Positions 2,554 to 31,739 of a DNA stretch of 64,000 nucleotides are shown here, one piece after another. The notes below the pieces were generated by a model. That model saw only the letters and a list, made by a program, of their open reading frames with translations. It was not told where the DNA came from and searched no databases. Made by a program: the position numbers and the translations under genes. Numbering within the stretch: position 1 is the first letter of the stretch; each line of letters opens with the position of its first letter. Source of the stretch: a virus (taxonomy: Duplodnaviria > Caudoviricetes); IMG/VR virus record IMGVR_UViG_3300024270_000002, one strand, 5' to 3'.

Positions 2554-4407
2554 ATGAATAGTTTATTTGGAGGCTTTGATTTATCAGTAAGTACAAAGCC
2601 AAAAGTATCACCTGAAGCTCTTATTAAAAAAGCAACACCGACTGTTGTAGCAGAGCCTAAGAAGATAACTAATCAGAGTTTATTTGCCTCTGAAGAATTA
2701 TCTGAATTTAATGTAGAACTTAATAAGCCTAAGCCTGAAGCCCTGGCACGTAAGATTGCAAGTACTGAAGAAGGCGAAGTTGACACGGCTAAGGTACTTA
2801 AGTCTAAGAAGGTTTCTCTTGCTGAAAAACTCGCCTTAATTAAAATTAAGGTACTTGAAGTACTCGGTAAGCAGAGAAAGAATGTAATTGTAATTAAGAC
2901 AAAAGAAGATTTTGAAGATTATGTTTCTAAAGCTATCCAGTTCGGCCGAATTGCGATAGACACTGAGACCAATAACTCTACTGACCCCATGACTTGTCAG
3001 TTAATGGGTCTTTGTTTGTATTATGAAGGCGGTAAGCAGGCTTATATTCCTATTAATCACGTTAACCCTGAAACTGGCGAGCGCCTTGATTGGCAGCTTA
3101 CTGAAGCCGATTGTAGAGAGCAGCTTCAAAGAATTAAGGATGTCGGCACTTTTGTAGTAATGCACAATGGTAAGTTCGATTATGAAGTTATTAAGTGCAC
3201 CTGTGGCATTGAGATTGAGCCTGACTGGGATACTATGATCGGTGCTCACACGCTTAACGAGAACGAGCTTATGGGTCTTAAGCCCCAGTATATCAGTAAG
3301 ATTGACCCTACTCAAGAAAAATATGATATTGAGAGCTTATTTGTAGTGCCTTATAAGTACGTAGACCCCGATATTTTTGCTCTCTATGCTGCGACTGACT
3401 CGTATATGACTGACCGACTTTACCTGTATCAAGTAGCTATTTTTGAACAGCCTGGTAATGAAAGACTTTATTGGATGTTTAAAACTATTGAAATGCCTGT
3501 TGTAAAAGTAACTGCTGATATTGAGCTTATCGGTGTATGTATTGACCAGGACTTTGGCGAAAAGCTGAAGGTAAAGTATAATCAGATTCTCGAAGGAATC
3601 GATGAAAAAATTGAGGCCGAGCTGAAAAATCTTGAGCCACTGATTAACAAGTGGAAAAGCAGTAAGGACGCTACTGACAAAACAAAGCAGTTCGAGCCCA
3701 AGAAGACAAAGCTCTCGCTTGCTAAACTTGAGGAGAAGTATCCTTTTGTAGATGAGAAAACGGGTAAGAGATATAAAGTTGGTAAGGCTAAGATTGAGCA
3801 GCTTGGTGATCCTATTAACCTTGCTTCACCTACACAGCTTGCTATTGTATTTTATGATATTTTAAAGTGTCCTGTGGTAAGCAAAAAATCGCCCAGAGGC
3901 ACCGGAAAAGACGAGCTTGAGGCAATAGCTGAGAGAACCGATATTGCGCTCTGTAAGCTGATTTTGGAGCGTCGTGGCATAGTTAAATTGATTACTACCT
4001 ATATTGATGTTATTCCTGCTCTTGCACAGCATTGGCCCGACGGAAGAGTTAGATATCGCCTTAATTCAGCTGGTACTGATACAGGCAGATATTCATCTGG
4101 TGGTGAATTTAAGTTCTTGGACGAGAATGAAAATCCTGTAGAAATGGCCTCTATAAATTCGCAGAATATACCTTCACGTGGCGATGGTAAAATTACTCGT
4201 ATGCTTTTTAAGGCCAGAGAAGATTTTAATACTATTACTACTGATGATAATTGTTACAGACTACCTGAAATTTCTGAGATTGAAACTGTCGATGGTTGGA
4301 AGTTTGGTAAAGACCTTATAGTTGGTGATAAGCTAATTTCAGATGAAGGTACTGATATTATTATAAATATTGTATATATAAATAAAGAATACTTAATTTA
4401 TGTTTAA
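2554..4407 (+). CDS. polA: Family A DNA polymerase, N-terminal fragment (3'-5' exonuclease + thumb) ending in a degenerate intein-like tail
   Basis: Exo motifs DTET, HNGKFD, YAATD; NLASPTQL, TGRYSS, NSQNIP, RMLFKA; last ~62 aa resemble an intein N-part (EIETVDGWKFGKDLIVGDKL). Start moved to ATG 2554 after GAGG. Confidence 0.9.
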   Translation: MNSLFGGFDLSVSTKPKVSPEALIKKATPTVVAEPKKITNQSLFASEELSEFNVELNKPKPEALARKIASTEEGEVDTAKVLKSKKVSLAEKLALIKIKVLEVLGKQRKNVIVIKTKEDFEDYVSKAIQFGRIAIDTETNNSTDPMTCQLMGLCLYYEGGKQAYIPINHVNPETGERLDWQLTEADCREQLQRIKDVGTFVVMHNGKFDYEVIKCTCGIEIEPDWDTMIGAHTLNENELMGLKPQYISKIDPTQEKYDIESLFVVPYKYVDPDIFALYAATDSYMTDRLYLYQVAIFEQPGNERLYWMFKTIEMPVVKVTADIELIGVCIDQDFGEKLKVKYNQILEGIDEKIEAELKNLEPLINKWKSSKDATDKTKQFEPKKTKLSLAKLEEKYPFVDEKTGKRYKVGKAKIEQLGDPINLASPTQLAIVFYDILKCPVVSKKSPRGTGKDELEAIAERTDIALCKLILERRGIVKLITTYIDVIPALAQHWPDGRVRYRLNSAGTDTGRYSSGGEFKFLDENENPVEMASINSQNIPSRGDGKITRMLFKAREDFNTITTDDNCYRLPEISEIETVDGWKFGKDLIVGDKLISDEGTDIIINIVYINKEYLIYV

Positions 4408-4440
4408 GCTTTTTAAAGCATGAAAGGAGAGTGATGCTAA

Positions 4441-5604
4441 ATGAGTAAGTCCGTAAGAACGAGAACCCGGTATAAACTGGTTGGTTCGGACTATTCTTAG
4501 TCTGCGCAGGAACCCCGATTGACTGCACACATGGCAAACGATGAAAATATGATTCAAGCATACAGAGAAGGTAAGGACCTCTACTGTGTTATTGCATCAA
4601 AAGTTTTTAATAATAAATACGAAGATAATCTTGAGTTCTACCCTGAGGGAACAGAAATCGAGCTTGATGGTAAGAAGATTATTTGTGGACATAAGACACA
4701 TTTAAATAAAGCAGGTAAAGAGCGTAGATCCCTGTCCAAAATGATACTTTTGGCGATTACGTATGGAATGTCAAGTAACACTCTTGCAGGCAGAATTAAT
4801 AAGACAAAAGAAGAAGCTCAGGAAATCATGGATAGCTTCTTTGATAGCTTCCCCAAAGTAAAGGCGCTGATTGAAGATTCTAAGCAGACTCTACGAGAAA
4901 ATGGTTATGTAGAAGACTGGGCGGGCAGAAGACGTCATTTGACTGACTACTTCCTTAACCCCTATGAAGCAGCCTATGCAAATCCAGAAAAGCTTATTGA
5001 GCAAACTTTTAATCCTATTCTTGGATGTGAGAGTCGTCCGCTTGTAGATGATAAGCTCACCTCTTGGGTTAACAGGGCTAAGATGGCACGTGGTAATAAA
5101 GAATTTGACCAGCTGGCTAAAGAAGCAGCAAAAGAAGGTATTATTTTATCTGCTAACACTGGGCGTATTGCTCAGGCAGAACGTCAGTGTTTAAATGCAC
5201 GTATTCAAGGCGGTGCAGGCTCATTAACGAAATTGGCGATGATTAATATTCACAATAGCCAGGAGCTAAAGGACCGAGATGCTCATCTTGTTATGACTAT
5301 TCACGATGAGGTTATGCTGGAATGCCCTGCCCTTTATGCAGAAGAAGTTTCAGAGATTCTTCCGAGAATTATGATCGAGACAGCAGTACCTTATATTTCA
5401 GTTGGAATGAAATGCGACCCTGCTGTAGAGTCTAGATGGTATTGCGGAGAATATGCTGTCGCCGTGCAGTCCGAATTTAAGAAGTACGAAGAAAAAGGCT
5501 GTACTCGTGAAGAAGCCTTCCAGAAGCTCTACGCAAATCATCCAGAGCTTCCTGAAGAAGCTATTTATAAAACAATTACTGAAGGTATTGACTTGGAGTT
5601 TTAA
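4441..5604 (+). CDS. polA: Family A DNA polymerase, C-terminal fragment; in-frame TAG at 4498-4500 inside motif A
   Basis: GAAAGGAG RBS then MSKSVRTRTRYKLVGSDYS*SAQEPRLTAH; motif B RSLSKMILLAITYG; motif C IHDE. ORF track start 4519 omits the catalytic Asp. Confidence 0.85.
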
Positions 5605-9060: not shown

Positions 9061-9086
9061 AATTTTTAAATTTACTCAAAATTATT

Positions 9087-9095
9087 TGCTAAATT
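9087..9095 (+). promoter_or_regulatory. Late-class promoter motif TGCTAAATT (first of 11 copies)
   Basis: Recurs intergenically at 9087, 23258, 26122, 32252, 34607, 40516 (CGCTAAATT), 40987, 45952, 51500, 53922, 62244, mostly before virion genes. Confidence 0.8.
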
Positions 9096-9127
9096 TAATA
9101 GAAAACAAATTAAAGGAGACAGTTATT

Positions 9128-10162
9128 TTGGGTAGCTTAGTTGAAGTGCATCGCCCGCGTATGAAAAAAGCCGAGTATGAAGCACTTAAAAAGAATTTAG
9201 ACAGAGAGTATTTCTATGATTTCTATTTACATAACTGTAATGATTATGTATGCACAGAGTTTAATATTAACCTTAGTACTTTGTACAGGCTAATTAAAGA
9301 TTTTGGAATTGAGCTTACTAAAGATCAGTTAAAGTATAGAAATAAAATTGCAAGTGAGCAAAAATGCATTGAAACATTTGGGGTCAAAAATCCTTTCGGG
9401 GCAGAAGAGGTTAAAGCTAAAATACGAGATACTAACTTAAGTAGATACGGTGCTGAAAATCCTTTTGCTTCAGAAGAGATAAAAGATAAAATAAAGCAGA
9501 CACATTTAGATAAATACGGAGTAGAGTATATTTCGCAAAGTGCGGAGATTAAACAAAAAGTTGAAGAGACCTGTCTAAAACGATATGGCGCTGTTAAGTA
9601 TTCAAAAACAAACGAATGCAAAGAAAAAACTAAACAAGCGATTTTAGATAAATATGGTGTATACAGCACAACACTCTTGCCGGAAGTACAAACAAAGAGG
9701 GTTCAGACGAATATAGAACGGTATGGTGTTGATTGCTTTTTTAAAACTCTTGATTTTCATAAAAAAGCATATAAACATTATATCTACAATGACCAGTCAT
9801 TTGATAGCTTGCCTGAGTTGGCTGTATGGATATATTGTATTGACAACGGTATTGAAGTAAAAAGAAACCCGTGTTATTTTGATTATAACTTTGAAGGAAA
9901 AAATCACAGGTATTTTCCTGACTTTGAGATTAACGGTCAACTAGTAGAGATAAAGGGTGATCACTTCTTCAAAGAAAACGGTACAATGCAAAATCCTTTT
10001 GACAATAGCCAGGATGCACTATATGAGGCAAAGCATCAATGTGGTTTACAAAATAACGTGCAGTTTTGGCGCTCTGCTGAATATGAAAAATATTTGCAAT
10101 ACTTTATTGAAAATTATGACGTAGCTGATTATGTATTTAAAAAGAACAATGAGGTAATCTAA
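9128..10162 (+). CDS. Free-standing homing-endonuclease-like protein: (K/R)YGV-type repeats + C-terminal PD-(D/E)xK domain
   Basis: Six ~23-aa repeats (TFGV, RYGA, KYGV, RYGA, KYGV, RYGV); YFPDF...VEIKG; likely TTG start 9128 after AAGGAG. Confidence 0.7.
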   Translation: MGSLVEVHRPRMKKAEYEALKKNLDREYFYDFYLHNCNDYVCTEFNINLSTLYRLIKDFGIELTKDQLKYRNKIASEQKCIETFGVKNPFGAEEVKAKIRDTNLSRYGAENPFASEEIKDKIKQTHLDKYGVEYISQSAEIKQKVEETCLKRYGAVKYSKTNECKEKTKQAILDKYGVYSTTLLPEVQTKRVQTNIERYGVDCFFKTLDFHKKAYKHYIYNDQSFDSLPELAVWIYCIDNGIEVKRNPCYFDYNFEGKNHRYFPDFEINGQLVEIKGDHFFKENGTMQNPFDNSQDALYEAKHQCGLQNNVQFWRSAEYEKYLQYFIENYDVADYVFKKNNEVI

Positions 10163-10909: not shown

Positions 10910-11271
10910 TTAGACCAATTATAAAAGAACAACTTGAAAAATGTCAGTTTGCTGACTTAAATAACTTTGACCCAAATACAAATACTTTTTATATTAAAAA
11001 ATACTCTAAGCCTACATATGAGATTAATCATTGTTATTTAGTTAAGCTTCCTTTGAATATTGTTAATGTCACTGATTCTGTTTTAGCCGTTAACTGGAAT
11101 AACGGAACTTGTCCTAAAACTCAATATCTAAAAATCTATATTTCTAAAGCACTCGGCACGATGATTTATGTAGACAGCATTGGTTTTGATTTTGATACCA
11201 AACAGGATCTTAATATGATGTGGTCTGGCTGGCTTGATAGTACGCAGTTAACTCAGATTTCTGCACTTTAA
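10906..11271 (+). CDS. Hypothetical protein
   Basis: GAGGAG RBS, ATGA overlap; start 10906 rather than 10846. Confidence 0.7.
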   Translation: MIRPIIKEQLEKCQFADLNNFDPNTNTFYIKKYSKPTYEINHCYLVKLPLNIVNVTDSVLAVNWNNGTCPKTQYLKIYISKALGTMIYVDSIGFDFDTKQDLNMMWSGWLDSTQLTQISAL

Positions 11272-27205: not shown

Positions 27206-27223
27206 TTTGGAGGATAAATACCA

Positions 27224-28651
27224 ATGAAAATAAAGAAACAACTTATTACTGAAAGTAATCTCACAAAAGAAATTAAACAGCTTGAAGAGGCTGCTGATGA
27301 AACTGAAGCTGCTGCAGAAGAAATTCCAGAAGAAGATCTGATCGTTGATGATGTATTAAGTGCGTCTACGGCAGAAATTGCTGACGCTGTACAAGCAGCT
27401 GCGGAGGAAGCTTCTGATGGAAAAGAAACATATTCTGATAAAAACGCAGAAGCTATCGCAAACGAGCTTAAAACTTATGCAAGTGGTTTTGATGCTGCAG
27501 CTTGGGCGCCTCTCGACGTACCAAGTGAGCTTACTGACAAGCTAGATGACTGCCTTGCTAATGCTCTAGTAGCTCAGGCCTCAGGAACTAGGGATGGCGT
27601 AGACCTTCTTGTATGCGGACTTCCAGGTTCTGGTAAAACAGGTATTACTAAACAGTGGGCAGAAGATAGGGGCGTTAAGTTATTCTATTTAAATGCTAAG
27701 AATGACGACCTTGGCGCTATCCTTAATGGTTTCCCTGTTGATACAACAGAAGAAGATGAAGAAGGCAATAAGGTACATAAAGTAATAAGATCTTACTCTA
27801 ATGCGCTAGACCCTTTAAAACAGCCTAGGTCTGTTCTGTTTCTAGACGAATTTAATAGAGCAGCACCAAAGCTACGTGCGACTTTATTAACACTTATTAA
27901 CGAACACGAAATTGAAGGTCCTGGTAAAAAAGGAATATATCGTTTTGACAACTTACTTTTCACCATAGCTTGTATTAACCCTTCCGTACCTACTGACCCA
28001 GGTGCTATGGATCTAAATGATGCAGAAATGTCTCGTTTCGTTGATAAGCTAGACTGGGATTCAAAAGTTGATGATGCACTAAGGTATCTCGAATTCCATA
28101 TAAAAAAGATACTTGCTAGACACGATTCAAGCGATGCTAACTATGCATTCTTCTATGTACGTTATAATAAAATTCTAAATCTTGCCCGTGCACTTTTAAC
28201 TGACTATCGTTTTGAGTTTGACTCTCGTGATGACTTGCTAGATCTGTTTAATGATAAAGCAACAATGCTTAACCAGCGTGCTATTACTGACGCGCTCATG
28301 TCTCACGGTTATGATAAACAAAAATTCCTTAATTGGGTTGACAAGTACTCCAAGTTCCTAGAAAAAAACAAACAGATGATTCACGAGATACTTGATACTT
28401 GGGTTGAATTAGACGTAAAAGCGCCTACAGCTGGTGGAAATACAGCTACGGATACAGAAGAGCCTGAAAGCGCTTCTACTGGACAGGCGGCGGCTACAGA
28501 TGAAACTGATTTTGATAGTGTATTTGGTTCTGACGGAGAAGAAACTGACTCCGACCTATTTGGCACATCAACGTCAGCTGCAGGAAGTGCCGCAAAAGTA
28601 AGTGCGGCCGACGCCTTAGCTCGTATTAAAGGTTTTGACTTCAGTCTTTAA
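27224..28651 (+). CDS. MoxR/dynein-related AAA+ ATPase
   Basis: GLPGSGKT, LFLDEFNRA, ACINP, SRF; acidic termini. Confidence 0.85.
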   Translation: MKIKKQLITESNLTKEIKQLEEAADETEAAAEEIPEEDLIVDDVLSASTAEIADAVQAAAEEASDGKETYSDKNAEAIANELKTYASGFDAAAWAPLDVPSELTDKLDDCLANALVAQASGTRDGVDLLVCGLPGSGKTGITKQWAEDRGVKLFYLNAKNDDLGAILNGFPVDTTEEDEEGNKVHKVIRSYSNALDPLKQPRSVLFLDEFNRAAPKLRATLLTLINEHEIEGPGKKGIYRFDNLLFTIACINPSVPTDPGAMDLNDAEMSRFVDKLDWDSKVDDALRYLEFHIKKILARHDSSDANYAFFYVRYNKILNLARALLTDYRFEFDSRDDLLDLFNDKATMLNQRAITDALMSHGYDKQKFLNWVDKYSKFLEKNKQMIHEILDTWVELDVKAPTAGGNTATDTEEPESASTGQAAATDETDFDSVFGSDGEETDSDLFGTSTSAAGSAAKVSAADALARIKGFDFSL

Positions 28652-28677
28652 TTTTTAATATAAAGGAGATTTATATT

Positions 28678-29856
28678 ATGCAAATAAATAGAGCATTACT
28701 TGAATCTTCTGATATTACTAGACACTTTATGACCGACAGAGAGCGAAAAGTTAAAAAAGCTCTCTGTCAGCTTTTAATAGACAAAGGTCATAGAAAGTAT
28801 GCAGAACGATTTTGGAAATTAGATTTTAATATTATTGACTCAAAGAAACATCCTGACTTTACTGCTGCGATCTCTTTTGACGAGGCGACAGTATTTATAA
28901 GTGATGGCTTCTTGGGCAGTGGTCAAGGTATATTTAATCAGCTTGATGTGCTATTACGTCATGAAATGGCACACAATCTTATGATGCACCAAATTAGAAT
29001 GATGCATGTATTTAAAAAACTTCACGCACATGACCCAGAAGAAGCATATGAGCACATTAGGTATAGTGCAAGCTTACACAATATTTTAAATATTATCGAA
29101 GATTTTGAAATTTCTAATAAGCGTTATTCTTCTGAAGATAAAAAGATTGTAAGAACAATGCAGTTAAATGGTAGAGTAATCGGCGGGCTCGTAACTGAAG
29201 ACCACCGAGGCTGGGATAAACTACCTTTGGAAGCCATGTATGACGAGCTTTCTAAAGACTTAATTAGAATTAATAGTGAAATTAGAAGTGACCCTTACTG
29301 GCAGCCAAAGTCTAGAATAGAGAATAATCAACGTGTATATGACCCTATTGAAATGACCGGTAGCGGCGCAGTTGAAGAAACTAGAGTTATATCAATATAT
29401 AAAAATGCAATGAGGCCTTCCAGCATTAAAGCACCATTAGACATTTTTATAAAGTCAAAAACTTTTGATAAATGGGCAAAAATATATAAAAAGCTCGTAA
29501 CTACTCTATATGATAGATTAAAAGACCTAACTTCTGATGCTGAAAAAGCACTACTATTAGATATTGTAAATGAGATTTCTGTAACAAGCCCTAATGAAAA
29601 ATTTGATGTGCTACATCCAGTTGACGGCGATGTGGTCTGCATTTTATACACACCTGAGGATAAAATGATTGCAAACGACGTATTAAAAAATCTGGCTGGC
29701 AATATTAATTACGATCCTATGAAGTTTAAGGTAAAGAGAAAGATAAATACTCAGGAGTATAAAGATACTTGGAACAAGGTAGTTGCAGAACTAGACTCTA
29801 AGAAATTTGATAATGAAACCTTGAAGCAACTACGTGATGCTATTGAGTCAATGTAA
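28678..29856 (+). CDS. HExxH metallopeptidase-like protein (MoxR-VWA-associated type)
   Basis: FTAA, LLRHEMAH, NIIEDFEIS. Confidence 0.75.
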   Translation: MQINRALLESSDITRHFMTDRERKVKKALCQLLIDKGHRKYAERFWKLDFNIIDSKKHPDFTAAISFDEATVFISDGFLGSGQGIFNQLDVLLRHEMAHNLMMHQIRMMHVFKKLHAHDPEEAYEHIRYSASLHNILNIIEDFEISNKRYSSEDKKIVRTMQLNGRVIGGLVTEDHRGWDKLPLEAMYDELSKDLIRINSEIRSDPYWQPKSRIENNQRVYDPIEMTGSGAVEETRVISIYKNAMRPSSIKAPLDIFIKSKTFDKWAKIYKKLVTTLYDRLKDLTSDAEKALLLDIVNEISVTSPNEKFDVLHPVDGDVVCILYTPEDKMIANDVLKNLAGNINYDPMKFKVKRKINTQEYKDTWNKVVAELDSKKFDNETLKQLRDAIESM

Positions 29857-29882
29857 GTAATAAGAAAGGCGAGTTAAATTAT

Positions 29883-31739
29883 ATGGAAATTAATGATATA
29901 TTAAGTAAACTTGGTCTTGATTTATCTAATCCAGAAGTGCGAAAAGGCGCAATAGAAGCAATAGATGCAATTCTTACTTCTAGGACACCGGTTACTGCAG
30001 GAGACCTTGGAGGAGGTGGAGGTGGTGAACAGGATGTTGAACTTGACCCAGACCTGCTACAGCCTTCAGTAAAGCAAGCGCCTTCAGATGTTGATGACAG
30101 TGATATAGAAATTGAAGACGAAGAAAAGATTTTAGACCAGATAAAACACAATGATTCGGAAGATCCAATTGAGAATACAAACTCAGATGGAGATAACTCT
30201 GAGTCTGATGATGAATCGGACGACAATAATCAGAGTTCAGATGACACTAGCAGCACAGATGATTCTGACAAAGATGCCAAGCAGCCAGATAAAGATAAAG
30301 CCAGTGACAGCAAGCCCAAGGACTCTGAAGATGAAAATGATGAGCTTAAAAACTCAACAGAAGATGAAGAAGCTACTTCTACAGCTAAAGCATCGGATGA
30401 TGAAGATGAAGCAGATGAGGACGACGATACAGAAGATTTTGATAATGATGATGAAAATGATGAGTCTGATGATACTACCGATGAGGCTGGAAGTGACCAA
30501 GAGAACTTTGAAGACGACGAAGACGGTGATTTCGAAGAAGTAGACACTGGTGATATTAAGTCTGACGATGATGATGAAGATGCTGATAAAGAATTTGACG
30601 ACTTTGAAGACGAAGACGAAGATGAAAACGAAGATGAAGAGGATGAAGAATCTGAAAATGATTTTGAAGACTTTGATTTCGATGAAGATGACTTAATAGA
30701 TGATGAGCTTAAAAACTCAACAGAAGATGAAGAAATAAAAACAAAGCACGATGCTCGTAAAATAAAACGTGAACGCACTCTTGCGGCAGCTAAGGCAGCA
30801 TTAACAACCGCGCAAACAAACAAGGTTGCACCAGCCTTAATACGAGAACTTGAAAAGGCTATTGAGGCGCTTGAGGCACTAACGGAGGCGGTGACTAAAA
30901 GTCTAAAAGATATTTCTGATGAAGAATTTAACCTTTTAGTAAATCGAGTATTTGATGCTATCGATGCATGTGGTGGCGGTGGTCTAACCTTTACGTCTGA
31001 GGAAGAAAGAGAAGCACAAGTAAAAGAAATCAAAGATGACCTATCTAAGGCAGAAACGCAGAATGAACTTTCTGCTGAAGACGTTGCTAAAATACGTGCA
31101 GAAACTCAAGCGGTCAAGGCCAGAGAAAAAGAGGCTGCTAAGTACTCTCCTCGCGGCAGAGATACATTTAAAGGCTTCCAAGAGTTTTTAAGTAGCTTAT
31201 ATAGAGCAATAGCGCTGCAAGTATCTGCAGAAGAAACTCGTGACGACTCCTGGTCTGCTATTAGCCGTAGAAATAGCGGTGCTGGTGTATTACGACAGGG
31301 TCAAAAAGTTAATGAGCTACCAAATAAAAAAATACCGATTATCGATTTCTATTTTGATCAATCAACTTCTTGGAATGCAAATGATATCAAGGTTGGAATG
31401 AAAGCAGTTAGTCAATTAGCGGACATGGAAGAAAAAGGACAAATTAAACTTAACATCTTTTATTTTGCGGATGAAGTGTCAGAAACTCCGATTCGTGGTG
31501 GCACATCTGGCTGGAATGAAATTGTTAAAAATGTTGTTGCTACTCAAGCAACAAATGTTGTTGTTATGACTGACTCTGATATGCAAAATTGGTGGGTTGG
31601 ACCAAAACCATTATCCTACACTGTTCCTGGCTATGTATGGTATCTCTGGAAAGATGGCGAAAATGCACCTAGACTTCCTCGAGACCTTAAGGGACGCGGT
31701 GGTGTGCAGCAATTCTCTTTCAATATCAATGATATCTAA
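29883..31739 (+). CDS. VWA-domain protein with very long acidic linker
   Basis: MIDAS-like FYFDQSTS, GGT, VVMTD; about 230-aa D/E-rich tract. Confidence 0.75.
   Translation: MEINDILSKLGLDLSNPEVRKGAIEAIDAILTSRTPVTAGDLGGGGGGEQDVELDPDLLQPSVKQAPSDVDDSDIEIEDEEKILDQIKHNDSEDPIENTNSDGDNSESDDESDDNNQSSDDTSSTDDSDKDAKQPDKDKASDSKPKDSEDENDELKNSTEDEEATSTAKASDDEDEADEDDDTEDFDNDDENDESDDTTDEAGSDQENFEDDEDGDFEEVDTGDIKSDDDDEDADKEFDDFEDEDEDENEDEEDEESENDFEDFDFDEDDLIDDELKNSTEDEEIKTKHDARKIKRERTLAAAKAALTTAQTNKVAPALIRELEKAIEALEALTEAVTKSLKDISDEEFNLLVNRVFDAIDACGGGGLTFTSEEEREAQVKEIKDDLSKAETQNELSAEDVAKIRAETQAVKAREKEAAKYSPRGRDTFKGFQEFLSSLYRAIALQVSAEETRDDSWSAISRRNSGAGVLRQGQKVNELPNKKIPIIDFYFDQSTSWNANDIKVGMKAVSQLADMEEKGQIKLNIFYFADEVSETPIRGGTSGWNEIVKNVVATQATNVVVMTDSDMQNWWVGPKPLSYTVPGYVWYLWKDGENAPRLPRDLKGRGGVQQFSFNINDI
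30337..30734 (+). repeat. 35-nt perfect direct repeat (30337-30371 and 30700-30734)
   Basis: ATGATGAGCTTAAAAACTCAACAGAAGATGAAGAA twice, 363 nt apart, in frame. Confidence 0.9.

Follow-up and report, generated by a model that had tools for sequence, protein, structure and literature searches.

The closest described system to the locus considered in the present work is the gene 39/mobA/60 element of phage T4 (Bonocora 2011, as reported in bioRxiv 10.1101/2022.08.31.505936), in which the insert bypassed by ribosomes keeps the endonuclease from nicking the DNA (Manning and Atkins, bioRxiv 10.1101/2022.08.31.505936). The gene 60 cassette of this element was near-unique for a long time, and its origin is puzzling. 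As to shorter hops, a 2016 review knew of no natural in-frame stop-hops (PMC5009743). Genes split without splicing are also on record: the NrdA protein of Aeromonas phage Aeh1, split by MobE, is described in bioRxiv 10.1101/2022.08.31.505936 as reassembling unspliced and needing added tails for activity. Furthermore, the Hint fold has two pseudo-symmetric subdomains and is thought to have derived by half-domain duplication (PMC7664689).

The stretch of DNA analysed here (64,000 nucleotides, hereinafter the window) belongs to a viral record of 127.8 kb (G000), whose completeness is about 55%. It harbors a polA gene next to helicase, primase and recA-like genes, i.e., a replication cluster according to ORF content and Pfam labels. 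Most of its relatives come from metagenomes, the near-complete ones spanning 200–224 kb; no cultured phage is close, the nearest being only 37–41% identical. The polA gene is split, and the features of the locus are the following:

2554–4407, + strand: N-half of PolA, from ATG to TAA (4405–4407), 617 aa, about 70 kDa, with the 3'-5' exonuclease, the first polymerase part and, at its end, the putative half-Hint tail
4216–4404, + strand: putative half-Hint C-terminal tail of 63 aa, predicted to be non-catalytic, pN/pS 0.26
about 4216–4257 and onward, + strand: inside the tail, an extra strand followed by the block-A-like start, position 1 being the Arg at 4258–4260 (Hint alignment)
4408–4440, + strand: spacer of 33 nt, where relatives have a free-standing endonuclease gene
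4423–4433, + strand: Shine-Dalgarno (SD) site in the spacer, -15.5 kcal/mol
4441–4497, + strand: leader ORF of 19 codons from the ATG at 4441, pN/pS 0.21
within the leader, + strand: first ~8 residues, probable final strand of the half-Hint domain; the strand of motif A comes after them (alignment and model)
within the leader, + strand: codon of the catalytic Asp (4489–4491) and take-off codon TCT (4495–4497), from the sequence
4498–4503, + strand: coding gap of 6 nt, made up of TAG (4498–4500) and the landing codon TCT, from the sequence
4504–5604, + strand: remaining C-half of PolA, with the end of motif A and motifs B and C, from the sequence

Pfam matched the N-half with exo1 and DNA_pol_A (10–149); the C-half would amount to 385 aa, about 44 kDa overall, provided that the 6 nt are skipped. 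Reads of a single sequencing run map to 4655–4848 only.

The resemblance to the T4 element concerns several aspects: an essential enzyme is split by a free-standing homing endonuclease; the chains have conserved C- and N-terminal extensions; a stop-containing insert flanked by matched take-off and landing codons lies soon after the new start; the endonuclease family is swapped (HNH, GIY-YIG, VSR) or lost and the insert kept; and there are fusions, possibly secondary, and repeated gains on the host tree. However, the split enzyme is PolA here and a topoisomerase in T4, the gap is 4–14 nt here and 50 nt in T4, and the leader has about 19–25 codons against 44–46 aa. Moreover, T4 has one homologous cassette, whereas here the inserts are unrelated and occupy six sites with six amino acids, the extensions would form a half-Hint domain, and a very strong SD is a constant feature. 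On these comparative grounds, the system of the window is analogous to the MobA element and not a member of it.

Its geometry, codon–stop–same codon, is that of the synthetic stop-hops (9 nt, one amino acid; PMC5009743), but the case of the window is natural and apparently required. The fractured genes (Dassa 2009, PMC2677866) share with it a phage DNA enzyme in two pieces, with Hint sequence on both sides and an endonuclease between them; those contain complete split inteins, for which trans-splicing is predicted, whereas here there would be half a Hint fold, non-catalytic, with a recoding insert next to it. The Aeh1 NrdA likewise consists of two chains with no splicing but, in the description given in bioRxiv 10.1101/2022.08.31.505936, it has no bypass and its tails are not described as Hint-derived. 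Short blocks are also skipped, at a slow codon and in an essential gene, in the terminase of Streptomyces phage Hau3 (10-nt bypass; PMC10732093) and in the Magnusiomyces mitochondrial byps (27–55 nt); unlike the window, these rely on a sense codon that is rare or unassigned, and the Hau3 terminase gene has neither a split nor an endonuclease cassette. In the literature searched, whose coverage is incomplete, we found no publication on this combination of split PolA, half-Hint and hop.

The comparison with the relatives indicates that the PolA split is real, old and conserved, because the N-half homologues of the best 120 clusters all have 612–658 aa and all end in the same tail of about 63 aa. 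The initial annotation had pointed out that joining the halves across 4216–4461 restores a normal PolA spacing, and in fact the deletion of this region yields the spacing of module-free relatives such as L027, where three residues close the loop. The stop of the N-half, the strong ribosome-binding site (4423–4433) and the new ATG at 4441 were also confirmed; with the stop and the separate ribosome-binding site retained across more than 100 clusters, the sequence indicates that each half is translated on its own. The frame shared by the two halves, to which importance had been attributed, does exist in the window but appears incidental, since the distance from the N-half stop to motif A, 72 nt in the window, is 71, 70, 73 and 69 nt in L018, L036, L061 and L108, respectively; in coupled splits it is 29–32 nt. 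Among the loci with known context, 17 have the half-Hint module fused in frame, 26 are without it and the remainder are split, the break falling in split relatives just ahead of the last strand of the module. Three loci display other arrangements: in L215 (1–2852) the N-half is broken once more, around a gene containing DUF7487, whereas the split is filled in L069 (1228–2472) by a GNAT gene with a P-loop-like part and in L098 (510–1040) by an ORF that is NADAR-like by eye, motif A having no insert in either of the latter.

The tail had been reported to resemble intein block A; profile and structural matches to Hint folds bear this out and carry the resemblance onward from that block. In a structural search on 48,161 solved chains, Hint folds occupied all of the first 17 ranks, with VIA Z-scores from 7.4 to 4.3 (values under 8 are moderate) and, for the best matches, an rmsd of 1.9–2.0 Å across 62–64 residues; the first non-Hint chain had a Z-score of 4.0. 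Probing with the tail profile retrieved PT-HINT-like proteins at E of about 1e-4 to 1e-5 and, as the best PDB matches, the gp41-1 and BIL domains (E 0.11–0.7). The Hint check proposed for the tail thus gave a positive outcome in the structural comparison and a negative one in Foldseek, which retrieved nothing from the PDB with E under 0.001. ESM Atlas matches, all below 0.9, to several Hint families are to be taken as a lead only, and Pfam gave no match for the window tail alone and a weak Hint_2 match in 3/46 members of the tail family. Overall, the scores are moderate and the family is consistent, which supports a tail derived from a Hint fold.

The Hint-like part of the tail reaches the strand preceding block B. 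The alignment places intein residue 1 about 14 residues past the junction, at an Arg in the window; none of the 120 close homologues has a Cys there, and the 90 distant ones have no Cys and two Ser. Any TxxH is present in one close tail out of 120 and in two distant tails out of 85, and a terminal HN followed by Cys, Ser or Thr is absent from all 85 tails and from the leader. The whole module has 77 aa, compared to about 130 or more for a complete two-subdomain Hint fold. Since it is half-sized and lacks the position-1 Cys, the block-B His and the terminal HN, splicing would be impossible; sequences and models alike indicate that the module is not an intein and matches in size a single one of the pseudo-symmetric subdomains of a Hint fold. 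The lack of TxxH and of HN plus nucleophile, for which splicing had been deemed impossible from the window alone, therefore extends to the homologues. The Cys is indeed off the junction, as had been observed, but it lies (4252–4254) two residues before intein residue 1 and occurs in only 16/120 homologues. Conversely, two interpretations have to be abandoned: the leader, compared in the initial annotation to the start of a DnaE IntC, would instead supply the final strand of this small domain, and a typical split intein decayed in place agrees neither with a single Hint-sized half bearing an extra strand before position 1 nor with a module that is also fused in frame and recurs at two other PolA sites. 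The suggested survey for intact inteins did retrieve complete ones (Pfam Intein_splicing, with LAGLIDADG in one) in P0260, P0300, P0344 and P0370, 20–25 residues before the tail; such true inteins are a plausible source of the half-Hint module.

According to AlphaFold2, a fused copy of the module folds as a confident all-beta domain (pLDDT 96.7, pTM 0.81), whose last strand corresponds to the leader of the window. The split tail alone gave a pLDDT of 65.8 and a pTM of 0.45, with the first strand disordered; this contrast is only suggestive, because the two predictions started from different lead sequences and alignments. When the tail was modelled in complex with leader and motif A (halves of L214; alignments A4, A5), the score was 0.18, which speaks neither for nor against contact. 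The module lies nearly always at the same PolA site, and no second copy was found in the five genomes searched. As for the non-covalent joint that had been proposed, its Hint ancestry, the two chains and the lack of splicing are upheld, and the joint itself is suggested by the fused relatives and by the two models; we infer that the leader strand may complete the half-Hint domain in trans, thus helping to join the chains without splicing.

The initial annotation had overlooked the homing-endonuclease context of the split and an in-frame TAG (4498–4500) in motif A, located after the catalytic Asp (4489), ahead of the conserved Glu (4510), and having identical Ser codons on either side. The same TAG is present in the independent assemblies L017, L018, L019 and L028, and a TCT-TAG-TCA variant occurs among the relatives, which harbor 28 distinct inserts of 4–14 nt at six codon sites (four in motif A, two in motif B), with six take-off amino acids and with TAA, TAG and TGA all represented. 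The stop directly follows the take-off codon in 26/28 types (chance about 0.07 each), the landing codon is synonymous in 23/28 and both features coexist in 22/28, with mismatches between take-off and landing codons distributed as 1, 2 and 17 over codon positions 1, 2 and 3; the relatedness among insert types and among loci makes these counts overstate independence. Six types break the rule, two lacking an adjacent stop and four having a non-synonymous landing codon. In the 23 intact relatives, the spacing of motif A is gap-free and the Asp-to-Glu distance is invariant. In the window, the insert makes up the 3' side of a local hairpin (about 4486–4504) that is better than 99% of random fillers; hairpins surpass random fillers at the 5% level in 12/28 types, motif B inserts have none, and the folding of the 121-nt region around the site is no better than that of shuffles (z -0.36). 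The comparative pattern of the inserts suggests that ribosomes most likely hop 6 nt, from TCT to TCT, over the TAG. A scan for other hop sites with a strong SD retrieved only 4441 in G000 (a match near 30022 is a run of Gly codons within an ORF) and nothing convincing in the near-complete relatives G001 and G006.

Different explanations of the in-frame stop were considered. The TAG might be decoded as an amino acid by suppression or recoding, adding two residues to motif A; the insert of the window is in frame, and gene callers reading TAG as Q give such proteins in four clusters. Alternatively, the C-half might be a pseudogene, or faulty assembly might have produced the TAG, with another polymerase in use, for which the partial completeness of G000 leaves room. 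These readings generally fail because 13/28 insert types change the frame, TAA and TGA versions occur, the identical TAG recurs across independent assemblies, leader and C-half are both under purifying selection at the insert-bearing loci, a single PolA locus is present in G001 and in G006, both carrying a 5-nt insert, with no PolB in G001, and no CUA-anticodon (amber suppressor) tRNA was found in either of these two near-complete genomes. Moreover, an intact start of motif A is missing from 35/120 close C-half clusters, the Asp-to-Glu spacing never varies, and genome-wide TAG recoding is absent according to the coding cover (0.85 with table 11, 0.88 with TAG read and 0.885 with TGA read), in agreement with the standard code. 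We therefore regard decoding of the TAG as distinctly improbable and a pseudogene or an error as highly so. A removal of bases at the RNA level, whether by transcriptional skipping, by a ribozyme acting in trans or as a micro-intron that is excised at the hairpin and rejoined by an RNA ligase of the phage, would agree with the hairpins of many inserts and with the bigger intron-like insertions in motifs A and B of other relatives. Nevertheless, Rfam finds no intron in 3500–5200, a group I catalytic core takes over 200 nt against the 6 nt of the insert, and the group I rule (5' exon ending in U, intron in G) can be satisfied in only 11/28 inserts; the variation confined to the wobble position and the stop right after take-off point to decoding by a tRNA. 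Removal from the RNA, which we consider improbable, would leave this codon pattern unexplained, and a ribosomal hop fits best.

Other explanations accept the stop but concern the two chains. The split and the hop might both be true and the half-Hint tail a tolerated passenger, the chains pairing by the polymerase's own surfaces; the module does lie in a loop that L027 closes with three residues. This appears unlikely, since selection on the tail (pN/pS 0.26) is similar to that on the polymerase (0.20), the chain ends directly after the module in 85/90 module-bearing PolA representatives, with the same break at a second site, and the model confidence is lower without the leader strand. A single chain could be obtained either by a 246-nt bypass from AGA to AGA, as the initial annotation had offered as an alternative, or by protein trans-splicing. 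The halves share the frame and AGA stands at both borders in the window's genome, but the bypass fails because these traits are not conserved: just 6/43 split loci have AGA as the codon following RxLFxA, and the frame is variable. Besides, the first AGA is not followed by a stop, the tail is translated and under selection, and the family has no nucleophile, TxxH or HN for trans-splicing; a single chain is thus scarcely credible.

Coming back to the hop and its context, the SD at 4423–4433 exceeds that of all 145 long ORFs of the window's genome. The SD duplex energy is -13.1 or stronger in 37 insert loci and -11.2 or weaker in 25 intact split loci, with L087 representing an exception omitted by the filter of this comparison. 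An endonuclease-like ORF lies within the split in 18/35 insert loci, compared to 1/26 intact split loci; the Pfam names are GIY-YIG and LAGLIDADG_3, the others being unnamed or weakly named. L059 harbors a frameshifted endonuclease remnant and the window just the 33-nt spacer. In L087 and L092, nuclease-like genes occupy the split but no insert accompanies them. The scan of the spacer for promoters and terminators gave no excess over chance. On a polymerase tree of 78 rows, 19 changes of the insert state are needed (mean of 24 for shuffled states), and the near-identical pairs L133/L214, L059/L161 and L022/L027 differ in it; the window and L132 have in common the tail, the spacer and 98% of the C-half, whereas leaders and inserts differ. 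This arrangement, from the tail and the endonuclease through the strong SD and a short leader to the hop, is found again before motif B. The best reading of these data is that the endonuclease context accounts for both the split and the stop.

The cassette before motif B was found in L008 (2630–4070), L009, L010, L082, L083 and L094, with a homologous half-Hint tail, a GIY-YIG/NUMOD gene (missing in L083), a strong SD, a short leader and 9- or 12-nt inserts with a stop between Leu/Leu or Thr/Thr codons; L082, L083 and L094 have putative hops in both motifs A and B, which would make a three-chain polymerase. A third half-Hint site, fused in frame, lies in the interval between motif A and the fingers in L089 (2279–2503). 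A short family-wide fingers insert (FYPEGT..., 4636–4690 in the window) is Hint-block-A-like, and the second-site module inserts directly after it. L087 (200–540) combines a strong SD and a nuclease-like upstream gene with a long in-frame insertion right after motif A and no stop insert; this insertion is possibly an alternative block to cleavage. Finally, noncoding insertions of hundreds of nt, probably self-splicing introns, occur in L096 (2270–2480) and in motif B of L015, L067, L093 and L096; Rfam gave no intron at gathering level in these four loci.

On the whole, we consider it probable, from the comparison of sequences, that the locus represents a homing-endonuclease cassette of the T4 39/mobA/60 kind, combining a joint with a very short hop, whose endonuclease has been lost in the window. 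In this scenario, the cassette would have split the phage polA in a surface loop directly before motif A, and the N-half tail and the first C-half residues would be two pieces of one small non-catalytic beta domain. The strand of the C-half, whose homology is supported, might complete this half-Hint domain in trans and contribute to holding the chains, without splicing. Ribosomes starting from 4441 would stall at the TAG following Ser19, and the peptidyl-tRNA-Ser would leave TCT and re-pair at the TCT six bases downstream, exactly restoring motif A, as the comparative pattern suggests. The insert would be present because it interrupts the conserved DNA site cut by the endonuclease, as in T4 gene 60, and the exceptionally strong ribosome-binding site may offset a probably inefficient hop; in synthetic genes, stop-hops are of low efficiency according to the introduction of bioRxiv 10.1101/2022.08.31.505936. 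The endonuclease gene would then have gone from the window's genome, with joint, ribosome-binding site and hop retained.

A broader scenario, possible but somewhat doubtful to us, is that of a mobile, non-splicing half-Hint module acting as a reusable connector of split proteins. Located at several loops of phage PolA and broken before its last strand, it would offer a safe landing place for free-standing endonucleases, each gaining its own hop of 4–14 nt in the nearest catalytic motif, for which a very strong ribosome-binding site would be the chief compensation. If true, a monomeric Hint half would exist in nature, together with a whole family of minimal stop-hops within an essential enzyme. 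The folding of a natural half-Hint by strand completion would test the origin of the Hint fold by duplication of half-domains, and the half-Hint pair would offer a small non-catalytic split tag. The dozens of natural variants (4–14 nt, six amino acids, three stops) represent an allelic series for minimal bypass, and near-identical relatives with and without the insert allow one to ask whether inserts arise against homing endonucleases. In practical terms, the annotation of about 29% (35/120) of the closest database C-half proteins leaves them lacking an intact catalytic motif A.

Lastly, some features outside polA are reported. Among the 29 tRNAs of G001, one gene (11081–11155, L221) has a TCA anticodon and is assigned to SeC by ARAGORN; it could be an opal suppressor. 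Between the recA-like gene and the next one, the window harbors a free-standing ORF with DUF7487 repeats and, by eye, a nuclease-like C-terminus (9086–10162), probably a further homing endonuclease. Moreover, three genes in the region 27218–31739 of the window form a cluster similar to those of MoxR type; they code for an ATPase of the AAA type, a protein with HExxH and an acidic one whose end is, by eye, VWA-like.
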